Shown here piece by piece: positions 4,607 to 60,524 of a stretch of 64,000 nt of DNA. Below the pieces are notes generated by a model. That model was not told the DNA's origin. It was given only the letters and a program-made list of their open reading frames with translations, and did no database searches. The stretch is taken from the IMG/VR virus record IMGVR_UViG_3300045988_098930. One strand, written 5' to 3'. Positions within the stretch are counted from its first letter, which is position 1, and every line of letters begins with the position of its first letter. This DNA is from a virus. A program made the position numbers and the translations under genes.

Positions 4607-6013
4607 ATGGATAACAAGCTATTTACTTGCAGGGCGACTTATAGTGTTGACGATTCTTATGTGTCTGACAAGTTTATAAAGCTCCGCGTGAAGATTTGCC
4701 ATACTGGTCAGAATCTTAATGGCAGTGTGATTGATGTGGATACGCTCAAAGCGGCGTTGCCTACGCTTGCCAACTCTCCCATCTTAGCTCATGTGGTTAA
4801 GCAGGAAGATGGCACTTATGACTTCGCCGGTCACGATATGAAAATAATCCCCGACCCTATGAATGAGGGTGAATATCGTATCGAATATCTGGAAGCGCCG
4901 GTAGGTGTATTTCCCGCTGACAATCTGGAATCGGTTATTGTCGAGGAAGGAGACCGCCATTATTTGTATGCTAACGCTTATGTGTGGCGTGGATACAGCA
5001 ATCTGGCCGGGGACATTATTGCGCAGCGTGAAACAGCAGATGTGTCTATGGAAATTGCCATAGACGCTTATGAGTATAGTGAACAAGATAATTTGTTCTA
5101 TATAACAGCTTTCCAGTTTGCAGGAGTGACTTTGCTGGGTGCAAATAAAACTCCCGCCATGGAAGGTGCAGAAGCTACTACAAAGTTCTCCGTTGAGGAG
5201 AATGATGAAAAACTGGCGAAATTGCTCTTTGCGTTAAGTAAGGAGCTTTGTAATAACCCCCGAAAGGAAGGTGACACTGAGTTGCCCAAGACTAAGAATA
5301 CTGTTCCTGTTAAGGAAATAGAAAAGCAGGAAATACCGGCAGAGGAAATGGAGACTATGAAAACTCAGACTGAGGATGTGGGTGAGGTAACTCCCGCTGA
5401 AGAAATGGCTGAGATCGCTACGTTCTCTGCGTCTTATGAACAGAGGCGTGAGAGTTTACGACAAATTATGCCTTGCCACTGCGATGAGACCTCCGAAATG
5501 TATTGCTATCTGCTTGACTTCGATGACCAGTATGCGTATGTCGAAAAGCATTTCTGGACGATAGACAAGCATGAGCGCACTAACGGACGTTTCGCCTATA
5601 AGTTTGATAAGGCCACGCAGTCTGCTGAACTGACTTCCGATTTTGAGCGGATGATAGTTAAGTGGCTGACTGTGGAGGAGGCCGCCAAGTTAGAGGAGTC
5701 TCGTAATGTATTCACCGAGGTTGAGGAGCTGCGTGCTTATAAGCGTGGCATAGAGACCGAGCAGGTGTTTGCCGAGTTCCCCGATCTGGTTGAGAACGAG
5801 CAGTTTATGGCATTAAAACAGGACAATACCAAGTTCTCCATAGAGGAACTGAAGCGTGAGTGTTATGTCATACGTGGCATGGCTCATGTGCCTGCGGCAC
5901 AGGACGATGGGGAAACTGCTCCCAAAATTTCTGTCAAACATATCGCAGACGAGCCGAAGAATACTCCTTATAATGGCGTCTTCGAGGCTTATGGCATTAC
6001 TAAGAAAAACTAA
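4607..6013 (+). CDS. Putative head scaffolding / prohead-processing protein
   Basis: ORF track 4598..6013. ATG 4607 sits 8 nt after AGGAGG. It has a highly acidic, E-rich central region and lies between portal and capsid genes. Confidence 0.45.
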   Translation: MDNKLFTCRATYSVDDSYVSDKFIKLRVKICHTGQNLNGSVIDVDTLKAALPTLANSPILAHVVKQEDGTYDFAGHDMKIIPDPMNEGEYRIEYLEAPVGVFPADNLESVIVEEGDRHYLYANAYVWRGYSNLAGDIIAQRETADVSMEIAIDAYEYSEQDNLFYITAFQFAGVTLLGANKTPAMEGAEATTKFSVEENDEKLAKLLFALSKELCNNPRKEGDTELPKTKNTVPVKEIEKQEIPAEEMETMKTQTEDVGEVTPAEEMAEIATFSASYEQRRESLRQIMPCHCDETSEMYCYLLDFDDQYAYVEKHFWTIDKHERTNGRFAYKFDKATQSAELTSDFERMIVKWLTVEEAAKLEESRNVFTEVEELRAYKRGIETEQVFAEFPDLVENEQFMALKQDNTKFSIEELKRECYVIRGMAHVPAAQDDGETAPKISVKHIADEPKNTPYNGVFEAYGITKKN

Positions 6014-7640: not shown

Positions 7641-8258
7641 ATGGCTAATAAAGCCAGCACAACCAAGAGCACGGCCCCGAAAGCGCCCAAGCAGACTAAA
7701 CCGAAGTCTGAGCCGGTTGTTCCGGTGCAGGATACAAGGACGGTACAAGTCGAGGACACAAAATCAGCCATAGTTGAGCCTTCTGCCCAACAGGTGTGGC
7801 GTGCCAGTGATCATTTGACTGAGCGTGTACCTGTGCGTAGTGCTATATATGGCACGTTAATATATGTAGACTCCCTTACGCATCGTAAGTGGGTGTGGAC
7901 GGAGTTTGGTCAGCGCCATGAAATTGCGTTAGAGGTGTTAGAAAACGCCCGTAATACTCAACCGTCTTTCTTTATAGATGGATGGTGGGAGATTGACAGC
8001 GAATATGCGCACAAACAAGAAGTGCTGGATTTTCTTGATGCAGGCAAGTTCTATCAAGCTGAGGTCAGTATTGATAACTTCGACTCTCTGCTCAAAAAGT
8101 CTACTGCTGAAATTAGTGCCGTAACTTCTAAGTTGCCTGTGACGCAAAAGGTGCAGCTTGCTCGTAGGGTGCAAGAGCTTATCAATGAGGGCAAACTGGA
8201 TTCTGTCAAGGCTATTCGTGCGCTGGAAAAGACTCTTGGTGTCGATTTTGAGATGTAG
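7641..8258 (+). CDS. Hypothetical protein with Lys/Pro-rich N-terminus
   Basis: ORF track 7635..8258. ATG 7641 lies behind AAAGGAGAG. N-terminus reads KASTTKSTAPKAPKQTKPKSEP. Confidence 0.5.
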   Translation: MANKASTTKSTAPKAPKQTKPKSEPVVPVQDTRTVQVEDTKSAIVEPSAQQVWRASDHLTERVPVRSAIYGTLIYVDSLTHRKWVWTEFGQRHEIALEVLENARNTQPSFFIDGWWEIDSEYAHKQEVLDFLDAGKFYQAEVSIDNFDSLLKKSTAEISAVTSKLPVTQKVQLARRVQELINEGKLDSVKAIRALEKTLGVDFEM

Positions 8259-36672: not shown

Positions 36673-36726
36673 AGGTCTGCCAATCTGAGTCGATGGTATC
36701 GACCGTGGTTCTGGTTTGGCAGACTT
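36673..36726. other. Candidate attP core for the serine integrase (nested imperfect palindrome)
   Basis: Arms AGGTCTGCCAATC and GGTTTGGCAGACTT flank the inner palindrome GTCGATGGTATCGAC. The site lies 65 nt from the integrase 3' end in the convergent gap. Confidence 0.3.
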
Positions 36727-36789: not shown

Positions 36790-38295
36790 TTATAAGTCGT
36801 ATTTCCAAAAGATGCGGATTTCGTCTGTAAATATGCGAACCTCTTTTATCAGCATTGCGGCGACTTCATGGCGCTGTGCAATATCCATATAGGGCCACAT
36901 ATCCAGCGTGTCATACAGTTGTCGGGTGTTTTCGGGTGACGGTCTTTCCAGTATATGTTTTTGCAACGCAACCTCTATTTCATGGCGTTGTGTTTCTAAT
37001 GCAGCGATTTTATCGTTGAGATAACCTATGACCGTTGCAGAGCCTTGAGCGATTGCGTTCACCAAGTTGTCAATCTGTTCATTGATTTTATTGATTTGTA
37101 TTTTGTATTGTTGCTCCTTGATGTCGCACTCGGCAATCTGTTGTGCTTGTAGGTCGGAATGTCTTTGGATGTGTTGCATGATTTGGGTCTCAACCGCTTC
37201 TTCCACTTGTGCAATAGATACACGCGCATTATCATCACAAGTTCCGTAATTGGCATGTCCAGAGCATCGAAACTTTGGTACACCCTTTTTCATTACATCC
37301 GCTTTCATAGCTTTGCCGCAATAGCCGCATTTAATCAAACCAGTCAGCCATGAGTGTTTGCCTTGTCCTCCATTATATACCTGTGTGTTATTACTTAAAC
37401 GGTTCTGACACAACAAGAATGTTTGCGCATCAACTAACCCTTCATGTAATCCGATAGATAATGTGAGGCTTTTTAGCTGGTCGAACTTACGCCGTTTGTG
37501 ATCCCACTGCCCATACGTTACACAACCATTCACGCCTGCAAAGGCTTCAATCGGGTTGGTGATGTTGATGCCTGTTAAGCGATAGTAGTTATATATGTCT
37601 GCATTAGCCTTTACATATACGGGGTTGGACATGATGCGGCTAAGTTTGCAGGAGTCCCATGCTGCACCGCCCGGAGATGGCACACGCCGCTGATTGAGTT
37701 GCCTCGCCAATGCTCCTAATGATGTGCTTGTGTATGCGTATGCGTCAAAGATACCGCGCAATATCTGCGTCGTTTCTGGGTCGCATACCAGTGAACTCAC
37801 AGACTTGCCTTGTAGGGCGACCTTGGTTTTGATAAACCCATAAGGTGCTGTGGAGTCGTATGCTCCGTTTGCCGAGCGCATATAATAATTATCCCTGACA
37901 CGTAACTGTATAGTCTCACGTTCAAGTTGGGCAAAGACCATTATAATGCTCAACATGGCGTTGCCTATTGGGGTAGAGGTGTCAAATTTCTCGCGTGTAG
38001 ACTGGAACTCTACATTGTGTTGTTTGAATACCTCTATCATTTCTGCAAAGTCTAATAGCGACCTACTAAGCCTGTCCAGTTTATAGACCGTTACCTTATT
38101 GATTACGCCGGAATGAATGTCTTTCATCATTTCCTGAAACTGTGGACGATTTGTATTCTTTCCGCTAAATCCTTTGTCAATGTACACTTTTGTGGGTACA
38201 TCTATACCCAATTCTTGTTTACAGAGTTCAATTTGGGTTTCGATAGATAAACTGTCCTTTTTATCTAACGATTGTCTGGCGTATACCGCGTTCAT
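36790..38295 (-). CDS. int: Large serine recombinase (integrase)
   Basis: 501 aa. N-terminal resolvase catalytic domain (AVYARQSLDKKDSLSIETQ), Cys-rich zinc-ribbon segment and coiled coil typical of large serine integrases. Confidence 0.9.
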   Translation of the reverse strand: MNAVYARQSLDKKDSLSIETQIELCKQELGIDVPTKVYIDKGFSGKNTNRPQFQEMMKDIHSGVINKVTVYKLDRLSRSLLDFAEMIEVFKQHNVEFQSTREKFDTSTPIGNAMLSIIMVFAQLERETIQLRVRDNYYMRSANGAYDSTAPYGFIKTKVALQGKSVSSLVCDPETTQILRGIFDAYAYTSTSLGALARQLNQRRVPSPGGAAWDSCKLSRIMSNPVYVKANADIYNYYRLTGINITNPIEAFAGVNGCVTYGQWDHKRRKFDQLKSLTLSIGLHEGLVDAQTFLLCQNRLSNNTQVYNGGQGKHSWLTGLIKCGYCGKAMKADVMKKGVPKFRCSGHANYGTCDDNARVSIAQVEEAVETQIMQHIQRHSDLQAQQIAECDIKEQQYKIQINKINEQIDNLVNAIAQGSATVIGYLNDKIAALETQRHEIEVALQKHILERPSPENTRQLYDTLDMWPYMDIAQRHEVAAMLIKEVRIFTDEIRIFWKYDL

Positions 38296-38527: not shown

Positions 38528-38983
38528 CTACTTGCCGCTACTGCCGAACCCGCCTCGGTCAGCATTGCCGAGACTAATGACTGGTTCAAATTTGATTTCG
38601 CCAAACTCGGTCCGCATTGTATAGTTTAATCGGAACTGGCAAATGCGTGTCCCCTTGGGAATGGTAATATCTCTGGTGGCGTAAGCGGGGAACTTCCAGA
38701 TGTCGTTGTCGCCGCAATATGTGTTGTCGATCACGCCCATTGAGTTGGCCTGCAAAACACCATAATTCTTAAAGGTGCTGCTACGAGGTACAATATTAGC
38801 CTCTACCCCATCGGGTAACTGCATGGCAACACCCAGCGAGATGAGGGCGTACTCACCGGCTTGCAGAGTTACTGTTTCGGCTGTATAAAGGTCTATCCAG
38901 TCTGATTTCTTATCCCCGATATACCCCAATTCGGCGGGATAATCCTTAGTATAACGAATATGTATATTAGTTGGTCGTTTCAT
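38528..38983 (-). CDS. dut: dUTPase
   Basis: Trimeric dUTPase motifs: GVIDNTYCGDND and C-terminal RGGFGSSG. Confidence 0.9.
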   Translation of the reverse strand: MKRPTNIHIRYTKDYPAELGYIGDKKSDWIDLYTAETVTLQAGEYALISLGVAMQLPDGVEANIVPRSSTFKNYGVLQANSMGVIDNTYCGDNDIWKFPAYATRDITIPKGTRICQFRLNYTMRTEFGEIKFEPVISLGNADRGGFGSSGK

Positions 38984-39453
38984 TTAGTCTCCTGAAATAA
39001 ATATGTTATGTCTATAAGTTCTGGGCCAAGCGGTGCGTGTTCTACACGATAAAACCGTTGATTAGTTGTAAGACTGTTTAATGCGCCCAAAGATTGCTGG
39101 TAGCTACCCATTTTCAAATAGTCAGTAAGAGGCAATATGTCTGCCATTTCAGACCAATTATCATTGCCTGCATATACACAAGTTTTTAGGTGATAAGTCT
39201 TCGCAATTTGCAACGCTTTACACAGCTCGTCGATATTCTGTGTGCCACCCATAAAGCACACACAGGTGATATAGGGCGCATACTGTTCGACAACATCTAC
39301 CAGTGATGCCAGCAATGGGACCCCTACGTCTTCCCACAGGTGTGGGGAGTGGCAACCCTCGCATTTAAAAGGGCAACCACTCACCTCAAAAGCCAAACTG
39401 ACTTCATCGGGAACCTCTTGAAACACCACCGTATAAGAAGTGTATTTAAGCAT
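38980..39453 (-). CDS. nrdG: Anaerobic ribonucleotide reductase activating protein (radical SAM)
   Basis: CPFKCEGCHSP CxxxCxxC cluster, 157 aa, overlaps the nrdD stop. Confidence 0.85.
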   Translation of the reverse strand: MLKYTSYTVVFQEVPDEVSLAFEVSGCPFKCEGCHSPHLWEDVGVPLLASLVDVVEQYAPYITCVCFMGGTQNIDELCKALQIAKTYHLKTCVYAGNDNWSEMADILPLTDYLKMGSYQQSLGALNSLTTNQRFYRVEHAPLGPELIDITYLFQETK

Positions 39454-41696
39454 TGCCGTAATACCTCTTAGCAGCCTCCTTTTGCCGAGCTTCGCTAAAC
39501 TTTGATACGCGCTTTAGATAGCCTATAATGCGCGTTGCATAATCAATGTCTTCAGACCCGCACTTAGGACATTTTGTTAAAGTGTGTTTATCAATATAAC
39601 CGCACTTATTGCAAATAGTGTTACGAACATTAAAGGTGAAGTAAGAGCAACCTGTTTTGATGGCGTCTTGCATAATAATTTGATACTGCTTCTTGGTCAA
39701 ATGCTCTTGCAGATTCACATGATTAGCGCTGCCGCCATCAAGATACTGTGTGAGCTTGTTGCCGTGCAGGATAAATTTATCTATGAGATTGACACCATCA
39801 TCTTCGGGACGGAAAAAGTAGCTGTTATAACACTCGCGAGGAGAGAACAACCCGTCTGCCTTGTCCCATTTAGCATTTTTAACCCCGAGGTTTTCAGCAG
39901 GCACAAATTCGGTGTTAAACATCAGTTCATCTGTACGAGCTGCTTTATTCGCTTCAAAAATAGGTCTGAGTATCTTTTCGCCATACTCAAAATATTGTTC
40001 ATTGGGCGTAATGTCTATGCCAAGAAACTCTGCGCCCTCAACGAATCCATTGATGCCTATGGTTAAGAATTGTTTTTCTAAAGAGATATAACCTGCATCG
40101 TACACAGGCAGCAATTTGGACTTAAAATTGTCCTTCATAATCTCATTGAACGCTATCAGGTAGTGGTGGCACTCATCTACAATCTGCCGTACTGCATCAG
40201 ATATATCAATGCCGTCACGCACAGCCCACTGCACCAAGCGATTGATGTTGATGGTCATAACCCCCTTGGAGCCGGTTGCAATGCCCCCAGCACCTAACGT
40301 ATAAGAAAATGTGTTGTCTTGCAGCTCGTTCCGTAAACGGCAATTATGGGTGATCATGCCATTGGGCAGCGTAAAATATGGCTCGTCTTGGTTCCTACAT
40401 TCAAAGCAATACACAGAGTCATAATTGTTTGCTACACTGGTGATGTTTTGCACCTTAAAATAGATGCCGTTGTTGATTACTTTATATACGTCTGCCAATG
40501 TGCGCCGGTTTTGTGGCGTATACCAACGAACACACCACAACGGGTAGTTATGATTATATTCTTGTTCTCGGATAATGCATTTTTCATCTGTGCGATCTGA
40601 CACATCAATCACAGTGCTGAGACCCAATGATGTACACAGAGCTTCCAAGTCTTGAACGAGGCGTTCAGACGTAGTATAAATACGGTTGCTATTGCCCCCG
40701 TCTGTTGCATATAGTCCGTCTAATATGCCTTTGCGGAAATCGTAAGATTGCGCGAAAATAGATGGGTTAAGCCCTTTTTCTGCGGCGTACTTACCCACTA
40801 CATACTCCCGAATAAATGTGACCACTTCTTCTCCGCTAATACGTACAGGATATACATTATTGTAAGGTGTGCCTAATGTAAAGTCTCTGTCAATATCGCA
40901 ATCAGATAAAGCCTTACGCATAGCGCCTATACAATTAGTATATTTGGCTTCATTTAAAGAGAAGTCAGTTGAATAATAAATGGCATGATTTTTCGTCTCG
41001 TTTTGGCGAATACTCCCATCTCCCAAATACATACCAATCAGAAACCCTTGTTCGTAAGTAAGATGCAAGTCGCGTTCTTTGACTGCCATTAAAGGTCGAG
41101 TATTACAAAGAATGTAATCATCAGTAGTTAATTCGCTGACTGGCACATCTCCGCGCAAAGTGGGGAAGATATGATTGTCAGTTGCTTCAACAACTTTTTT
41201 GTTGGCTGTCTCTATGCGATACATAGGACGCACAGCCGGTAATGCAATAGTTTTTGCAGACACCCAACTGCCGTTATGGAACACTGTCAGATTTCTCTTA
41301 TCAGCCCACTTGGTATCATGCAATTCTTTAATGGGTATTAAACGTTCGCCGTCACTGGAACGAACAAGCACTTGAGTATCGGGAGCAAAACAACACGACG
41401 CGAGTGAGTCAACACTGCCACTACGATAAGTAAAGAAGCTATGCCCTTCGGCATACATTTCAGCGGCAAAATCTGCCCATTCTTGATCTACATAATTCAC
41501 TCCGTCATCCAGCAGATTCATTGTCTCCACGGGAAAGGTCAAAACTTGTTTAGTACGTTCTTTATTAAACCACTTCATAAAATATTTCTGAAGCCAACTT
41601 ACGCTCTCCCAACATGGAGTTGTACCATCAGGGAACACAAAATCTGTAAATATACCGTGAAAGTAAGGTTCGTCAAAGTAGGCAATATTCCAAAAT
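39446..41696 (-). CDS. nrdD: Anaerobic ribonucleoside-triphosphate reductase, exon 2 (contains an intein)
   Basis: NrdD-like sequence (FWNIAYFDEPYF...) starts right after an in-frame TGA. C-terminal Zn ribbon CNKCG...CPKCG and glycyl-radical motif RIIGYL. Confidence 0.8.
40343..41392 (-). mobile_element. Intein (350 aa) with LAGLIDADG homing endonuclease, inserted in the NrdD SCC|RLR motif
   Basis: Starts CFAPDTQVLV and ends MITHN, followed by +1 Cys. LAGLIDADG motifs are FLIGMYLGDGS and ILDGLYATDGG. The flanks rejoin to SLASCCRLRNE. Confidence 0.8.
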
Positions 41697-42648
41697 CATT
41701 TATATTCTATAAGGTTCGCTACACCTTATACGTTCTCTTATGAACTGCTATACATCACTGTATAGATTAGACCATATCACTATCCCTTAGAAGGATACTC
41801 CCCATTTCCATCACCAATCGCTTGTGATGTACTCGCTTGCGCGATGGTCGTTGAACCTTCCTCCATAGAGGCTTGGCTGCTGATTGTCTGTAACGAACGA
41901 TGTTTAGCCTTATGACAATCCGCGCATAAAGTCACTAAATTATTAGCGTCAAGAAATCTCGCATCGTGGGTAATAATGGTATATAATTGGTTGACATCTT
42001 TTTGCTTGTCTAAATCAGTATGCTCACTTAATATATCTCTTATAATACAAGCCAGCGAGTATATATGATGTACGTGCAAATTGCTGTGCGCTCCACATTG
42101 CTGACAGGTAAAATTATCTCTTTGCCTAATGAGAGGAGATATATTATTTTGGTAGTATTCTCTAACCCTAAGATTTAAAGGCGTAATTCCACCCTTCCAA
42201 TTATGGTGCTGACTACCACATTGCACACCGATTTTAGCTTCAGACGCGCCCCGAACAGGAATATTCATTCTACGTAATGCTCTATCTATAACGTGCGGAG
42301 CACAATTAAGCATCAGTCCAATTTGCTCTTTGGTTTTATGCTCAACAATATACCATTGATACAACATCGAATAATCGGTAAGTTCGGGAGGGCGATCTTT
42401 TTTGTGATATGCAAAATGAGATGCGGCTAAATCACGTCGCGTTATACCCATTTTTTGCAAATGATTAAGTACAGAACGGTGGCTTGTGCCTAAGATACGC
42501 CCTATTTCGGTGCTTGATTTCTTGTGTTCCAAATAAAGTTCTTGTATGCGTATATCGTCTTCTTCTGTTAAACGTCTGCCCATTTTCAGAGTTCCCAGCA
42601 ATTAAAGGAGTTTGCATTATTCATTACTGAATAAGGGCGCATTGTAAT
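41697..42648 (-). mobile_element. Probable group I intron interrupting nrdD
   Basis: Exon 1 ends GCGU, which can pair with intron GCGC (42640-42637) to give a U.G at the splice site. The intron ends in G just before exon 2. It carries an HNH ORF. Confidence 0.6.
41780..42601 (-). CDS. HNH homing endonuclease (intron-encoded)
   Basis: CQQCGAHSNLHVHH...NNLVTLCADCHKAKH HNH motif, N-terminal helix-turn-helix-like repeats. Starts at TTG 42601 or ATG 42583. Confidence 0.8.
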   Translation of the reverse strand: MLGTLKMGRRLTEEDDIRIQELYLEHKKSSTEIGRILGTSHRSVLNHLQKMGITRRDLAASHFAYHKKDRPPELTDYSMLYQWYIVEHKTKEQIGLMLNCAPHVIDRALRRMNIPVRGASEAKIGVQCGSQHHNWKGGITPLNLRVREYYQNNISPLIRQRDNFTCQQCGAHSNLHVHHIYSLACIIRDILSEHTDLDKQKDVNQLYTIITHDARFLDANNLVTLCADCHKAKHRSLQTISSQASMEEGSTTIAQASTSQAIGDGNGEYPSKG

Positions 42649-43286
42649 ACGCTTTGAAAATTCCTTGCCGCTGCGGGTTGATTAAGTGAATAGACCACCT
42701 GCTGAAACGCTGCGTCTATTCTGTCGCAGATTGTCTTTGGTTTGATGCTATGAATCACAATATCATTAGAGTGTTTATAGTAATCTTCACCAAACTCTCG
42801 TCGCAGAAAATAATCCAGATAGGTCAAAAACTCAGGAGTGGAGACTGCTCCAGCAAATTGCGCGGCCACAGCAAACACAAGGTTTACAAAAGAGCCGCAG
42901 AAAGAATCCAAATTTTTAGGCGCTTCGCTTTGCCCGCCCAATGGCACAAGACCATTAAAGAGAAAGGGGTAAAGTGTAATACTGACACAATAGACACTCA
43001 AGTTTGTCTCGTCGTGTTTGTACAACAGATGTGACTCCAATCTGTCGATATATCGCTCTGCCCATTCTTCACCGTACAATTCAGATAGCTTATTCATCAT
43101 TAGCAATCGGTTGGTTCCAATGGCCTCTCTTTTGTATATTTCGCCAGAGAGAGTAGTGATATTTTTACTCTCTACATTGGCATTAGAATCCACCTCACTG
43201 CCGGTTGAAGCATTACTGGCTGTTTTGTACTTATTTATAAAGTCTATATATTTTTGATAGCGATTCTTGTATTCATCTACTGTCAT
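42649..43286 (-). CDS. nrdD: Anaerobic ribonucleoside-triphosphate reductase, exon 1
   Basis: N-terminal NrdD-like region ending ...LNQPAAARNFQSV. The ORF-track tail LQCALIQ* would be intron sequence. Confidence 0.75.
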
Positions 43287-43489
43287 ATTCCTTCCTTTCT
43301 ACTCATCACCCACTTAAAGGCTTCAGCATAAGTCATCGTTACTTGCAGAATCGGTGCAGACATAAACCCCATTCGTTTAATGGCATTCGCGTCAATCACC
43401 TTCTCGTAATTGACATTTTCTGCGGACAATTTATTAGCCAGAACATCGCATTGCGGGCATCCCTCCGTCCCATACATCACAACCTTCAT
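43283..43489 (-). CDS. Glutaredoxin-like protein (NrdH-like)
   Basis: 68 aa, CPQC redox motif near the N-terminus, adjacent to nrdD. Confidence 0.7.
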   Translation of the reverse strand: MKVVMYGTEGCPQCDVLANKLSAENVNYEKVIDANAIKRMGFMSAPILQVTMTYAEAFKWVMSRKEGI

Positions 43490-45241: not shown

Positions 45242-45831
45242 GCGTTATATACCGCATATCGCTTCAATATTGATGTGCTGGTGACATCGGGGTTATATGC
45301 CCGCAGGGTCATAAACAATGACCTCTCTCCAAATGGGCACTTGCTCATTTCGGGGCATCCACAACGGTAAATGCAATTCGGCACAAGCACATCTGCCAGT
45401 TCTGGCTCTATCTGATGCAGCGTAGCCTTGAAGTCCTCTGCATATTCACGGGTCTCAGGGCTGGCTTGGTAGCACAGTCTTTTACGCATAGTGTCGATCA
45501 GAGCTTGAGCATTGGCTTCGCCAGTAAAGTCCACCAGTGCGTCTTGCGGCAGTTTAGTGCGGTCAATGCCGGTGCGGTCTGTGCGCTGAGTTTTGACAAA
45601 CTTCTCCCACTTATGCCGAACCCAATGGACTGAAACCCATGAGGGCATTGCCAGCCACTTCCACTTCACAATGAGGTCGCGTATAGGGCTATGCTCTGCA
45701 ATAAGAATGTTGCGCTTAAATTGTTCCGAGGGTTCTTTGCCCAATGGCGACTTGCCCACAGTCGAACGGCAATCGTCAACAACCTCTGCCCAATCGCCTT
45801 TGATCTTTATGATTTCTGTCTTATCTTTCAT
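45211..45831 (-). CDS. ThyX-like (flavin-dependent thymidylate synthase family) protein, divergent
   Basis: AEHSPIRD...VHWVRHKWEKFVKTQRTDR parallels the ThyX GHxS...RHR...SQRY layout, but the SQRY-type motif is altered. Confidence 0.45.
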   Translation of the reverse strand: MKDKTEIIKIKGDWAEVVDDCRSTVGKSPLGKEPSEQFKRNILIAEHSPIRDLIVKWKWLAMPSWVSVHWVRHKWEKFVKTQRTDRTGIDRTKLPQDALVDFTGEANAQALIDTMRKRLCYQASPETREYAEDFKATLHQIEPELADVLVPNCIYRCGCPEMSKCPFGERSLFMTLRAYNPDVTSTSILKRYAVYNAWFGLHRKES

Positions 45832-45979
45832 CGGCCAATTCCTCTAAAACACCCATTGCTTCAGCAAATATAAAACCCATTGCCATGCCGTGAAGGTCGC
45901 CATGTATCCCCATATAACAGCCCACTATACGAGTCAAAGACTTAGCTATGGAAATCCAGAAATGTCCTTTACTGTTCAT
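45821..45979 (-). CDS. Small hypothetical protein (52 aa)
   Basis: Translates to MNSKGHFWISIAKSLTRIVGCYMGIHGDLHGMAMGFIFAEAMGVLEELADER. Overlaps both neighbours in operon style. Confidence 0.35.
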   Translation of the reverse strand: MNSKGHFWISIAKSLTRIVGCYMGIHGDLHGMAMGFIFAEAMGVLEELADER

Positions 45980-46136
45980 TGTTGGTGCGTTTGACCTCTC
46001 TTTCCAGCAATAGTTTGACCGCCTTACATATCCACCAAATTAGGTTGTTCTGCCACATATCGCGGGTGGTTTGGGTATGCATCATACCCTGCTCCATCGC
46101 TTCCGCGCACTCTATCATCTGTTCTCTTTTTGTCAT
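45969..46136 (-). CDS. Small hypothetical protein (55 aa)
   Basis: Translates to MTKREQMIECAEAMEQGMMHTQTTRDMWQNNLIWWICKAVKLLLEREVKRTNNEQ. ATGA overlap with the upstream stop. Confidence 0.35.
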   Translation of the reverse strand: MTKREQMIECAEAMEQGMMHTQTTRDMWQNNLIWWICKAVKLLLEREVKRTNNEQ

Positions 46137-46471
46137 ACTTCAATTACAAAATCGTCCTCGCTGAGTAACACTTTGCGCACTTCGTCCTCGGTGCAAATAT
46201 TTGTGTCTTTAATGATGTCCGCTAATGTGTCTTTTTCGTCTGCGTCAATCGCATTTACCTCTATCTCACCCGTAGTCCAAAAAGACACCACTGCGTATGC
46301 GTCAGCAATGAAATGCACACCAGCCGATGTGACCCAGCCGTAAGTGTTATGCCATAATGTGTTAAGTTGGTCTTTAGGGGCCGCTGAAAATCTAACCATT
46401 ACTTGTCCTCCTATCAGAAAAATTGTGTCTTTGCTTGCAGTTATATAGTGTGTTATAATGAGTGATAGCAC
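46133..46471 (-). CDS. Hypothetical protein
   Basis: 112-aa ORF behind TAGGAGGAC. Confidence 0.5.
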   Translation of the reverse strand: MLSLIITHYITASKDTIFLIGGQVMVRFSAAPKDQLNTLWHNTYGWVTSAGVHFIADAYAVVSFWTTGEIEVNAIDADEKDTLADIIKDTNICTEDEVRKVLLSEDDFVIEV

Positions 46472-46564
46472 TTTGCAGTATGTGCATGATGACTGCCGTA
46501 GTGCAACAAATATCGTTGTTAAGTTACATCGAAGTTGGAGGAAAACACATTGTATTGTGTTGGG

Positions 46565-47101
46565 TTACACCTCATTGCCCCAGCAGTCCCAGTCATCATG
46601 CGACTCACGAGCAAACAGCTCTATGCGCGGGGCGTAACTTACAATTTCTATCATTTCTCGCATTTGTATAGGTTTGCGACTGTGTATTGTTTTCGGCTCG
46701 TAGAATCCTGTCACACCTTGACAACGCTTATCGCCATCTATTTTGTACGGTAGACGCTTCTTTGTGGTAGCAAACAAACAATGCTCTGTTATTCCACGGT
46801 AATATTGACCAAGACCTACTTTGTCCTTCATCCATGTAATTGTGGTGATATATTCAAATCCCCACGCCTTGATACATTCAAACGCTGCCGGTAAATAGTT
46901 GTTGGTAGCCCATAGATACAAATGGCATCCTTCAGGGTCGGCCAGGTCGCCTACGGGCAATGCCATAATCTCCTTTACTGACATCAATGGGTAGTGACGG
47001 TCTGCACCGCGCTTGATTCTGCCACCCCCCTGTTCAGGCCAAGGAGGGTCGATATAAATAGTCCTATATTTGCCTTGCGGAAAATTAACTACTGCTATAA
47101 T
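46565..47101 (-). CDS. MT-A70-family DNA N6-adenine methyltransferase (no canonical start codon upstream of the catalytic motif)
   Basis: ORF track starts at TTG 46987, but the frame is open to 47101 and encodes GKYRTIYIDPPWPEQGGG (DPPW motif) upstream of that TTG. Confidence 0.65.
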   Translation of the reverse strand: MIAVVNFPQGKYRTIYIDPPWPEQGGGRIKRGADRHYPLMSVKEIMALPVGDLADPEGCHLYLWATNNYLPAAFECIKAWGFEYITTITWMKDKVGLGQYYRGITEHCLFATTKKRLPYKIDGDKRCQGVTGFYEPKTIHSRKPIQMREMIEIVSYAPRIELFARESHDDWDCWGNEV

Positions 47102-58793: not shown

Positions 58794-58877
58794 TGGTGCT
58801 CAAGGCGGGATTTGAACCCGCAAGGCTTTTGCCGACAGATTTTAAGTCTGTTGTGTATGCCGTTCCACCACTTGAGC
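58794..58877 (-). tRNA. tRNA-Leu (anticodon UAA), CCA encoded
   Basis: Hand fold: acceptor GCTCAAG/CTTGAGC, anticodon arm ACAGA-CTTAAAA-TCTGT, long variable arm CGGCAAAAGCC, T arm GCGGG-TTCAAAT-CCCGC, then ACCA. Confidence 0.85.
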
Positions 58878-58958: not shown

Positions 58959-59034
58959 TGGCTGAGGTGGCAGGATTTGAACCTGCGTGTGTCAGAGTCA
59001 AAGTCTGATGCCTTTACCACTTGGCGACACCTCA
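58959..59034 (-). tRNA. tRNA-Gln (anticodon UUG), CCA encoded
   Basis: Hand fold: acceptor TGAGGTG/CACCTCA, D arm GCC...GGC, anticodon arm TCAGA-CTTTGAC-TCTGA, T arm GCAGG-TTCAAAT-CCTGC, then GCCA. Confidence 0.85.
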
Positions 59035-60158
59035 ATGCAATGGGCGGTTTGCACCGCCCTAAATTGTTGTTTGATATTGCATATACTACGATATGCGTGA
59101 AAGCGGTGAGCATGGCCTGCCCACGAATCAACCGACACCCGAATGTCGTCTAAACTCATTCGACCCGCCGCTAACCATCGAGCGAACTTCTTTAACTTGC
59201 GCCGCATAGTTGTCACTGATAGCGGACTGAGTTTTCGCCACACACCGCCATGTTTGTTTAAAACATACAACCCCTTTAAGAAAGTCACACCGTTACTCAG
59301 TTTGGCAATCTGCGTCTTTTTAGGGTTTAACTTAATTCCCAACTTATCACATTCGGCTTGCAACTGATATAAACACAAAGTTAAATACTGTTTACTTGGA
59401 TGAATCATATACCCATCATCCATATATCGCGCATAATATTTGATGCCCAACTTTTCTTTCACAAAATGGTCGATACGATTAGGGAGTGCTAAGGCACATA
59501 TCTGTGAGACTTGACTGCCCAGCCCTAATCCTTGATCACCAAATTGTTTGATAAAATATTCGGTTTGCCGAAGCACATCTTGATCTGTGATACAACGGCG
59601 TAACTCCTGAAATACCGCCGCATGATTGGCAGAGTCAAAGTATTTAGAAAAGTCAAACGTGAGTACATAACCTTCATTTGTACCATACTTATTATAGTAT
59701 TGATGTAAATGTTTGACAAGGCGTTGCATCGAAAAGTCAATTCCCTTGCCTTTGAGAGATGCCCCGTTATCGTAAATGAAGGTACTACTAAGAAGTGGTA
59801 TCAAAGCATAATCGCACAGACAACGTTGAATTACCCTTTCCGAAATATGAACACTGCGGATATGTCGCGGTTTGCCGCGTTCAATCAAATCAAATTCTAC
59901 AAACCCCTTACTGCGATATGTTCCGTTTAATAGGCGTTGCCTATCGCAGTAGATATTGTCCAGCGCATTAGCCTTATACTCCTGCACGCTGCACTTCCAG
60001 CCTACGCCCTTGCGCGACGCCTTCCATGCTTTGTATAAGTGCTCCATTGAGAAAATCTCATTAAAGTTACCGACAGCCGCATTGCGCTTGGCGCGTTGTG
60101 CTTCTCGGTATTGTTTGCGGCGTTGATACCGCAGTTCATGCCGTTCTTCACTTGTCAT
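58998..60158 (-). CDS. DGR reverse transcriptase
   Basis: Start at MTSEERHELRY (ATG 60158). RT motifs include LGLGSQVSQ and YMDDGYM. The longer ORF-track form (to 60524) only reads through the TR. The last 37 nt overlap tRNA-Gln. Confidence 0.85.
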   Translation of the reverse strand: MTSEERHELRYQRRKQYREAQRAKRNAAVGNFNEIFSMEHLYKAWKASRKGVGWKCSVQEYKANALDNIYCDRQRLLNGTYRSKGFVEFDLIERGKPRHIRSVHISERVIQRCLCDYALIPLLSSTFIYDNGASLKGKGIDFSMQRLVKHLHQYYNKYGTNEGYVLTFDFSKYFDSANHAAVFQELRRCITDQDVLRQTEYFIKQFGDQGLGLGSQVSQICALALPNRIDHFVKEKLGIKYYARYMDDGYMIHPSKQYLTLCLYQLQAECDKLGIKLNPKKTQIAKLSNGVTFLKGLYVLNKHGGVWRKLSPLSVTTMRRKLKKFARWLAAGRMSLDDIRVSVDSWAGHAHRFHAYRSICNIKQQFRAVQTAHCIEVSPSGKGIRL

Positions 60159-60365
60159 AAAAATCCTTCGTATGGCTATAACGTGTTGCAGCCACATAGT
60201 TGCGACCATGAAAACAGAGAGAGCACGTATCATCTGTCCATGCAAGCAGCGTCCGGTCGCTTTCATCAAAGAATCACATTTACCCTTACAGGAAGGTCTT
60301 AGGCTCCTTCTATTTGTTGTACTGAGTTCGCTTCTAAAAGAAGTTAATACGTCGGACATGAAATG

Positions 60366-60493
60366 GAATCCCAGCGCCACGCCATTCGAGTTATTGGCAT
60401 TGTCATTGTTCGCGCTCCCAGATGTGTTAACCATACAGAAGTTGTTGGAGTTATTGACATTCGCGGAGCGTAGCCAAACATTACAAGCGGAGC
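60366..60493 (-). repeat. DGR template repeat (TR)
   Basis: 128 nt matching 61049-61176 at 112 positions. In coding sense it is rich in AAY codons (SANVNNSNNFCMVNTSGSANNDNANNSNG). Confidence 0.85.
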
Positions 60494-60524
60494 AAATGCT
60501 ATACAGCCTAAAACCTAAACACAA

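Follow-up and report, generated by a model that had tools for sequence, protein, structure and literature searches.

The 64,000-nucleotide (nt) stretch of viral DNA analysed here, IMG/VR record IMGVR_UViG_3300045988_098930 (the window), carries on its minus strand an nrdD gene whose sequence marks it as a class III (anaerobic) ribonucleotide reductase (RNR) of the Thermotoga maritima-like SCCR type. The gene is interrupted twice, by a group I intron that contains an open reading frame (ORF) for an HNH protein and by an intein with two LAGLIDADG motifs. In the list below and throughout, protein lengths are in amino acids (aa), and a caret in a sequence marks an insertion point or junction.

43283..43489, minus strand: 68-aa glutaredoxin/NrdH-like protein (CPQC), directly upstream of nrdD and overlapping its start
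43286..42649, minus strand: nrdD exon 1, codons 1-212 and the first two bases of V213
42648..41697, minus strand: group I intron of 952 nt, td-like (IA2-type, with P7.1 and P7.2 hairpins), Rfam RF00028
42583..41780, minus strand: putative HNH homing endonuclease ORF, 267 aa plus stop, starting in the P5 loop and ending inside P8
41696..39446, minus strand: nrdD exon 2, running from the third base of codon 213 through the remainder of the N-extein, the intein and the C-extein to the stop
41392..40343, minus strand: intein of 350 aa, nucleophilic Cys1 class, between Cys314 and Cys315 of SCCR
38980..39453, minus strand: nrdG (radical-SAM activase; Pfam Fer4_12 and Radical_SAM), overlapping the nrdD stop

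The ORF at 43286..42624 encodes the N-terminal third of NrdD (positions 8-158 of the Pfam NRDD profile) and reads ...NQPAAARNFQSV, beyond which lies unrelated intron sequence; the end of exon 1 is U42649 (...AGCGU). Similarity to NrdD restarts at 41695 (FWNIAYFDEPYF...), directly past an in-frame TGA (41698-41696) that straddles the 3' splice site. The earliest possible start codon of exon 2 is a GTG at 41638, 19 codons into the NrdD homology and without a ribosome-binding site. The NrdD-like FWNIAYFDEPYFHGIFTDFV between the TGA and this GTG could therefore not be translated by itself. When U42649 is joined to A41696, the predicted ligated-exon junction (...CAAAGCGU joined to AUUUUGGAAU) yields a single ORF of 962 aa, and removal of the 350-aa CFAPD...ITHN segment from its product leaves 612 aa.

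The 612-aa product was aligned with T. maritima NrdD (PDB 4coi, E=2e-63) and the alignment was gap-free at both junctions, with yslnqpaaarnfqsvfwniayfd facing yslnqpi--rttqspytnftyld at the intron and dslasccrlrne facing davasccrltss at the intein. One-piece tblastn matches to this product, over 97-98% of its length, were found in many phage genomes. Uninterrupted relatives in IMG/VR read QPAAARNFQSVFWN(I/L)AYFD at the intron site and SLASCCRLRNELQ at the intein site, and the spliced reading ...NFQSV^FWNIAYFD is the same as in intron-less relatives and in two intron-less alleles of the same species (L037 and L041, below). Pfam NRDD matches occur in both exons. The catalytic residues Cys100 and Cys314/315, together with the Zn site (CNKCG...CPKCG) and the glycyl-radical motif (RIIGYL) of the C-terminal part, are all intact. 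The upstream 68-aa redoxin, whose match to Pfam Glutaredoxin is weak and below the cut-off, is likely to be the thiol reductant partner of NrdD. An SCCR-subtype enzyme (mature residues 313-316) with an adjoining redoxin suggests that the phage supplies its own thiol reductant and is not formate-dependent.

The 952-nt insert can be read as a ribozyme with the following elements.

42642..42637, minus strand: P1, 3' strand
42634..42617, minus strand: P2, a perfect hairpin of 7 base pairs (bp)
42611..42605 with 41803..41797, minus strand: P3
42600..42595 with 41883..41878, minus strand: P4
42590..42587 with 41890..41887, minus strand: P5
41877..41855, minus strand: P6/P6a
41849..41844 with 41775..41770, minus strand: P7
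41844..41833, minus strand: P7.1
41829..41809, minus strand: P7.2
41796..41782, minus strand: P8
41765..41748, minus strand: P9
41745..41732, minus strand: P9.1
41730..41708, minus strand: P9.2
41697, minus strand: terminal G

In P1, exon GCGU (42652-42649) followed by intron AU faces AUGCGC (42642..42637, which includes GCGC at 42640-42637), and the U·G wobble at the 5' splice site involves the last base of exon 1, U42649. The Rfam model RF00028 matches 42659..41748 across its full length (1-253) with 43 bits (E=2.9e-9), and the two P5 strands enclose a loop of about 700 nt. For a 338-nt allele of the same intron from which the ORF is deleted (L014), the match rises to 81.4 bits (E=3e-19), and the minimum-free-energy fold of the 338-nt allele recovered P2, P3, P4, P5, P6a, P7.1, P7.2, P8, P9 and P9.2 (z=-2.9). 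P7.1 and P7.2 are extra hairpins typical of subgroup IA. Over its 3' 82 nt, from P9 onwards, the intron shares 87% identity with the td intron of Pectobacterium phage POP12, and this match stops exactly at the last base of both introns, which is the proposed 3' splice site. Comparison with POP12 reveals two compensatory double changes only, one in P7 (C-G/U-A) and one in P9.2 (U-A/C-G), the same-species copies being too similar to add others. More widely, the 3' core shares 70-80% identity with several hundred phage introns, including loci annotated as Intron_gpI in Staphylococcus phages. From the Rfam match, the readable pairings and the homology to POP12 we therefore conclude that the ribozyme is a td-like group I intron, and RNA splicing is predicted from these features. 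When the complete locus was compared by megablast with 50,697 phage records, the 82-nt td-intron match was the only one returned, so this phage collection holds no sequenced close relative.

The intron ORF most likely starts at ATG 42583, giving 267 aa, rather than at the listed TTG 42601. Its stop is the TAG at 41782..41780 inside P8, and its final ~40 codons extend over the ribozyme's 3' core. The protein consists of two N-terminal helix-turn-helix (HTH) units (Pfam HTH_38, 27.0 bits) and a C-terminal HNH/zinc module, CQQC...HVHH...N...CADCHKAKH, in which metal-binding and catalytic residues are present. It matches Pfam HNH (PF01844) at 27.3 bits, above the cut-off of 21.4, and PHROG 8446, 'HNH endonuclease', with E=3e-25. 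Its closest phage homologues are proteins of Lak megaphages at 32% identity, and a sequence search of the PDB gave no significant match. On this domain make-up, the protein may well act as a homing endonuclease on intron-less nrdD.

The second insert has all the splicing blocks of an intein, laid out below.

From 41392, minus strand: block A, CFAPD
Within 41188..41165, minus strand: block B, TDNH (T71-D-N-H74)
41044..41009, minus strand: LAGLIDADG motif 1
40729..40694, minus strand: LAGLIDADG motif 2
40417..40397, minus strand: block F
40363..40343, minus strand: block G, NGMITHN
40342..40340, minus strand: +1 Cys codon

The splicing residues C1, TDNH, ITHN350 and the +1 Cys lie in columns that are invariant or nearly so among 30 homologues. 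The two LAGLIDADG motifs, FLIGMYLGDGSI and GILDGLYATDGG, each contain an acidic residue (Asp). PHROG 25611, an NrdD family with a 978-position profile that includes the insert, matched with E=2e-78. A large protein database contained 99 clusters of intein homologues, nearly all with NRDD domains, and all 29 of the selected homologues that were aligned are inserted at ...S(C/N)C^C...THN^CRL of NrdD. A sequence search of the PDB with the intein gave nothing significant, so its fold had to be shown by modelling. The AlphaFold model built from the alignment has a predicted local distance difference test score (pLDDT) of 90.8 and a predicted template modelling score (pTM) of 0.90. Foldseek matched it to the TliVMA intein (E=1e-14), PI-PfuI (8e-14), PI-TkoII (2e-11) and PI-SceI (8e-10), and also to the mini-inteins Npu and Ssp DnaB. 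The insert as modelled thus has the HINT fold. The central domain of the model matches I-DmoI with a target-normalised template modelling score of ~0.7, as expected for a two-motif monomeric LAGLIDADG endonuclease in an I-DmoI-like fold, for which DNA cleavage is predicted. Removal of the intein restores SC^CR, and intein-less homologues exist in the same species and in other phages; protein splicing is the probable fate of the insert. The SC^CR site corresponds to 328-SCCR-331 of T. maritima and 288-MGCR-291 of T4 (PMC4493059), and this correspondence places the +1 nucleophile Cys opposite Cys290, the radical cysteine of T4.

Contigs of the same phage species were gathered from public assemblies of gut and other metagenome runs by means of the exon-1 product and the 68-aa redoxin, the latter being listed in 1270 blocks of the assembly collection; one retrieved contig record is labelled human gut. 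Nucleotide identity among the same-phage contigs is about 98-98.5%. The survey comprised 25 same-species loci and the window, with these allelic states at nrdD.

Window, L017, L019, L030, L031, L032, L034, L035, L045: 951-952-nt intron with HNH ORF, and intein
L044: 951-952-nt intron with HNH ORF, intein, and a second intein
L014, L015, L018, L029, L033, L038, L039: 338-nt ORF-deleted intron, and intein
L043: 338-nt ORF-deleted intron, intein, and a second intron at residue 462
L036, L040, L042, L046: intron with HNH ORF, without intein; exon-2 ORF of 360 aa, SLASCCRLRNE contiguous
L037, L041: without intron, with intein
L027, L028: truncated, with exon 1 and the 5' intron missing; intein, and second intron at residue 462

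These population alleles are the strongest evidence for the two insertions, and together with the E-values of the Rfam and PHROG matches they exclude a chance resemblance. Both intron-less alleles are a single ORF of 962 aa that agrees with the predicted spliced precursor at 953-957 of 962 positions; their exon junction reads AGCGT^GTTTTGG. In 8 of the 25 same-species loci an identical internal deletion of 614 nt (window 42551..41939, as defined in L014, L015 and L018) removes the HNH ORF and keeps the ribozyme and both reading frames; the HNH ORF is intact in L017 and L019, with 5-6 aa changes. The sequence beside each site differs with the presence of the element. Exon 2 starts ATTTTGGAATATTGCC in all 23 intron-containing alleles examined (the window and 22 contigs) and GTTTTGGAATATTTCG in both intron-less ones. 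Directly 3' of the intein site, intein-less alleles read TGCCGCTTACGTAAC and most intein-containing alleles TGCCGTTTACGGAAC, with a few intermediates, a difference of two synonymous positions. This pattern of flanking markers fits both co-conversion during homing and target-site variants that escape cleavage, between which it does not discriminate. Raised identity near the sites in IMG/VR relatives was also considered as a sign of co-conversion and was rejected as an artefact of a tblastn high-scoring segment pair entering the intein, the identity being uniform at ~98%.

An earlier note, made from the letters of the window, had given the end of exon 1, a 952-nt insert ending in G41697, a 350-aa intein and a 612-aa product, and all of these coordinates and lengths proved correct. 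The P1 helix of GCGU and GCGC with its U·G pair is present as it described. The two further proposals of the note, that the insert encodes an HNH enzyme and that the second insertion is a LAGLIDADG intein, are borne out by the family matches above and, for the intein, by the splicing blocks and the confident model; its label 'active-site intein' is fair given the alignment of the +1 Cys with Cys290. The Rfam search that it proposed did match a group I model on the insert, and comparison with intron-less and intein-less nrdD homologues fixed both insertion points to the nucleotide. The intein profile search had a divided outcome, with Pfam LAGLIDADG_3 above its cut-off (29.8 against 22.5 bits) and Intein_splicing below its own (26.6 against 35.8 bits).

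We consider it very likely that nrdD has been invaded by two independent selfish elements, a self-splicing td-like intron with an HNH enzyme and a self-excising intein with a LAGLIDADG enzyme, both of them expected to home. The intron lies in codon V213, and its transcript would fold into P1 to P9.2. An external guanosine would attack directly 3' of U42649, the exon base of the P1 U·G pair, and the freed exon 1 would then attack after the terminal G41697, producing a ligated messenger RNA and from it the 962-aa precursor. The HTH-HTH-HNH enzyme would cut the intron-less nrdD of co-infecting relatives, and repair would copy the intron in. Excision of the intein would proceed by an acyl shift at Cys1, attack by the +1 Cys, cyclisation of Asn350 and an S-to-N shift, which would release the 612-aa NrdD and a free LAGLIDADG endonuclease able to home into intein-less alleles. 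Of this account, the anatomy, the family assignments from sequence and modelled structure, the precise insertion points and the polymorphism of both elements within a single phage species are demonstrated, and splicing at the RNA and protein levels and the activity of the two endonucleases are inferred.

Annotation by gene callers yields two or three separate ORFs at this locus, and split but functional phage RNR genes exist (PMC3653736), as would be expected if an HNH gene simply divided nrdD into two cistrons whose products assemble into an active enzyme without RNA splicing, like the mobE-split nrdA of Aeromonas phage Aeh1. The earlier note had preferred splicing over two such polypeptides, and this preference holds. 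Homology of exon 2 begins directly after a stop and 19 codons ahead of any start, a complete group I core flanks the HNH ORF, alleles that lack this ORF keep the ribozyme precisely, and in the intron-less allele a single unbroken ORF shows the very junction that was predicted. A split gene fails on three counts, since exon 2 lacks a start codon, the ribozyme is intact and ORF-deleted alleles retain it, and we regard a split gene as highly improbable. A decaying nrdD pseudogene, in which both insertions would be irrelevant debris, is equally hard to credit. Some phage RNR genes are indeed degenerate (PMC3653736), and nothing specific to this locus points the same way. Exons and intein are open in 23 of 23 full-length same-species copies, where changes are few and mostly conservative, and no exon frameshifts or stop codons were seen in the population copies. 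This idea fails because throughout the population the reading frames and the catalytic motifs (cysteines, Zn site and glycyl-radical motif) remain intact; the phage has also kept nrdG and the redoxin gene.

The elements may instead be fixed passengers, which still splice while the HNH enzyme, the LAGLIDADG enzyme or both are inactive, the polymorphism reflecting loss and ordinary recombination. The shared 614-nt deletion of the HNH ORF speaks for this, and an outcome of this kind is foreseen for late stages in the life cycle of homing endonucleases; the lack of any biochemically characterised close HNH homologue among our matches is in line with it too. On the other side, both endonuclease ORFs are intact in the window, the HNH metal-binding and catalytic residues and the acidic residue of each LAGLIDADG motif are present, alleles with and without each element coexist against a background of ~98% identity, and the exon markers beside each site track the presence of the element, as co-conversion predicts. 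We therefore judge fixed passengers to be unlikely.

Several points weigh against two active, homing elements all the same. The full-length intron of the window scores under the curated gathering cut-off of RF00028 (50 bits) because of the large ORF in L5, and a scan of the window at that threshold missed it, the intron being found only in E-value mode or through the ORF-deleted allele. P5 has only 4 bp, with which it must close a loop of ~700 nt. The shortfall of the Intein_splicing match is attributable to the large internal domain. The HNH protein has no characterised close relative among the matches found, its best phage match being the distant one given above, and its ORF lacks a strong Shine-Dalgarno sequence. 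Loss of the HNH ORF in about one third of the same-species alleles examined shows that the endonuclease can be dispensed with, and it may be in decay. We nevertheless retain two homing elements as the preferred reading.

Flanked by Cys-1, Cys1 and Cys+1 at the redox-active SCCR motif of an oxygen-sensitive NrdD, the intein could conceivably also be a redox-conditional splicing switch, a speculation to which we give little credence. If it were true, disulfides formed under oxidising conditions would block splicing, active NrdD would be made only in a reduced or anoxic host, and the wide retention of the intein allele across NrdD clusters would be partly regulatory.

The nrdD gene of this phage clade is an insertion hot spot, and many database NrdD fragments begin or stop exactly at the insertion sites that follow. 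ORF-less group I-like introns of 277-336 nt lie at FVP^AE (residue 462) in L043 (~7975-8251) and L027 (7741-8076). Desulfovibrio phage 7757 has a 927-nt insertion at the same residue (L025, 4467-5394). Insertions of ~1.27 kb occur at residue 411 in L011, L021 and L023, with a GIY-YIG ORF in L021, and L021 has a further insertion of 250 nt at residue 517. A scan of these residue-411 and residue-517 loci (L011, L021, L023) at the Rfam gathering threshold gave no match; they were judged to be probable introns from stop codons, frame shifts and the GIY-YIG ORF of L021 only. A further LAGLIDADG intein of ~410 aa is present in some strains and relatives (L044, 5204-7099; L023, 4001-5489). Its site corresponds to window codons Y99^C100 (~42990), just before the other catalytic Cys (HDET..PY^TY...LWVHN^CVSIT), and it begins with Thr instead of Cys or Ser, an unusual N-terminus for an intein.

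In L027 and L028 (~5697-5721), homology to the window begins abruptly at the equivalent of 41918, in the 3' end of the HNH ORF. Directly upstream of this breakpoint lies a different element, which has its own 504-aa serine recombinase at its end and carries its own NrdD (638 aa), serine hydroxymethyltransferase and dUTPase; the preceding 6 kb contain neither exon 1 nor the 5' half of the intron, and one of the records is labelled human gut. The arrangement could be a second integrative element inside the intron or a rearrangement.

Elsewhere in the window, the following features were recorded.

36790-38295, minus strand: large serine recombinase of 501 aa, ~100 nt from the junction at 36688
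58794-58877 and 58959-59034, minus strand: two tRNA genes directly after the 508-aa ORF below, of which tRNA-Gln overlaps the ORF end and the other is tRNA-Leu
58998-60524, minus strand: ORF of 508 aa
60143-60361, minus strand: Rfam RT-2 RNA match (109.6 bits, E=1.5e-24), in the 5' part of the 508-aa ORF

The phage is temperate. At junction 36688 (...CCATCGACT) the window diverges from L014, L027, L031 and L032, which continue into bacterial genes (Indigoidine_A, periplasmic binding protein). Since the other contigs run into bacterial genes at this point, the window holds the excised arrangement of the phage attachment site (attP). An uncultured Clostridia metagenome-assembled genome from the Hadza gut encodes a protein with 97% identity to the flanking bacterial one; judged from this single protein only, the host is probably an uncultured Clostridia bacterium of the gut. 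The bacterial attachment flank, searched for in reference genomes as an exact pattern, was not found there. The remainder of the 508-aa ORF matches the phage reverse-transcriptase family PHROG 1423 (E=3e-77), and judged by these matches the region is a reverse-transcriptase and non-coding RNA module. Upstream of the nucleotide-metabolism block, at ~45830-46990, a strain-variable cassette lies between an MT-A70-like gene and an 88-aa gene. Comparison of the window with L033, L037 and L041 and with L029, L031 and L038 revealed three states, namely a cytosine DNA methylase, an oppositely oriented AcrVA2-like gene (PF26125), or neither; the window apparently carries neither.

For annotation, the locus is a case in which gene callers report two or three 'genes' (220 aa, 267 aa and 710-730 aa) in place of one nrdD whose true product would be 612 aa. 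For population biology its value is modest and lies in the several intron and intein alleles at one locus of a temperate phage species abundant in the human gut, which together give a natural snapshot of how homing endonucleases are gained, decay and are lost, and which also supply cleavage substrates.

Among known systems, nrdD (sunY) of T4 also contains a group I intron, which encodes I-TevII. The T4 intron splits codon Y180, equivalent to Y199 here and 14 codons upstream of V213; a shared insertion site was rejected on this offset, and the two introns are therefore independent invasions. The ORF of the T4 nrdD intron is annotated as GIY-YIG whereas the one here is HNH, and T4 NrdD is a distant MGCR-type enzyme, 21% identical to the present one. 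The POP12 td intron is built on the same ribozyme scaffold, with J8/7, P7 and the J5/4 segment 'AGACAAUC' in common, but it is ORF-less, ~260 nt long and in a thymidylate synthase gene, and its P2, P6 and P8 sequences differ. In the T4 td intron, the I-TevI ORF sits in P6 rather than in the P5 loop. The HNH protein resembles I-TevIII in that both are intron-encoded HNH proteins of similar size in a phage RNR gene, without significant sequence match between them. I-TevIII, from the nrdB intron of RB3, has separate catalytic and DNA-binding domains and contacts DNA by means of two C-terminal zinc fingers (Cys211-Cys245), and its HNH motif must be N-terminal because N-terminal removal removes the motif (PMC1865063). 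The domain order is thus opposite to that of the present protein, where two HTH units are N-terminal and HNH is C-terminal.

The closest parallels to the intein are in NrdD itself. Clostridium phage c-st (D-1873), with the same NrdD subtype, carries its LAGLIDADG intein at precisely this position (...ASC^C...THN^CRL...), with 47% identity over the full length, and Desulfovibrio phage 7757 has one at the identical site with 42% identity, also over the full length. The nrdD of c-st has no intron, and the second insertion of phage 7757 is at residue 462, not 213; the c-st gene order of glutaredoxin, nrdG and nrdD is the same arrangement as here. The c-st intein allele was already known, and RNR genes that harbour an intron as well as an intein have been described, namely bnrdE of SPbeta and nrdD of Lactococcus phage 949 (PMC3653736). 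The likeness concerns the combination of elements; SPbeta has a different RNR class and the phage 949 intron is non-coding. Of 104 Jug-phage genomes, 95 have an nrdD broken up by group I introns and inteins, and its splicing is backed by metatranscriptome reads (PMC12880540). Introns together with inteins in RNR genes, and an intein at this very site, thus belong to what was known before, and general knowledge of introns, inteins and RNR is unchanged; relative to these systems, the main added value of the present locus is an unusually complete natural set of alleles.

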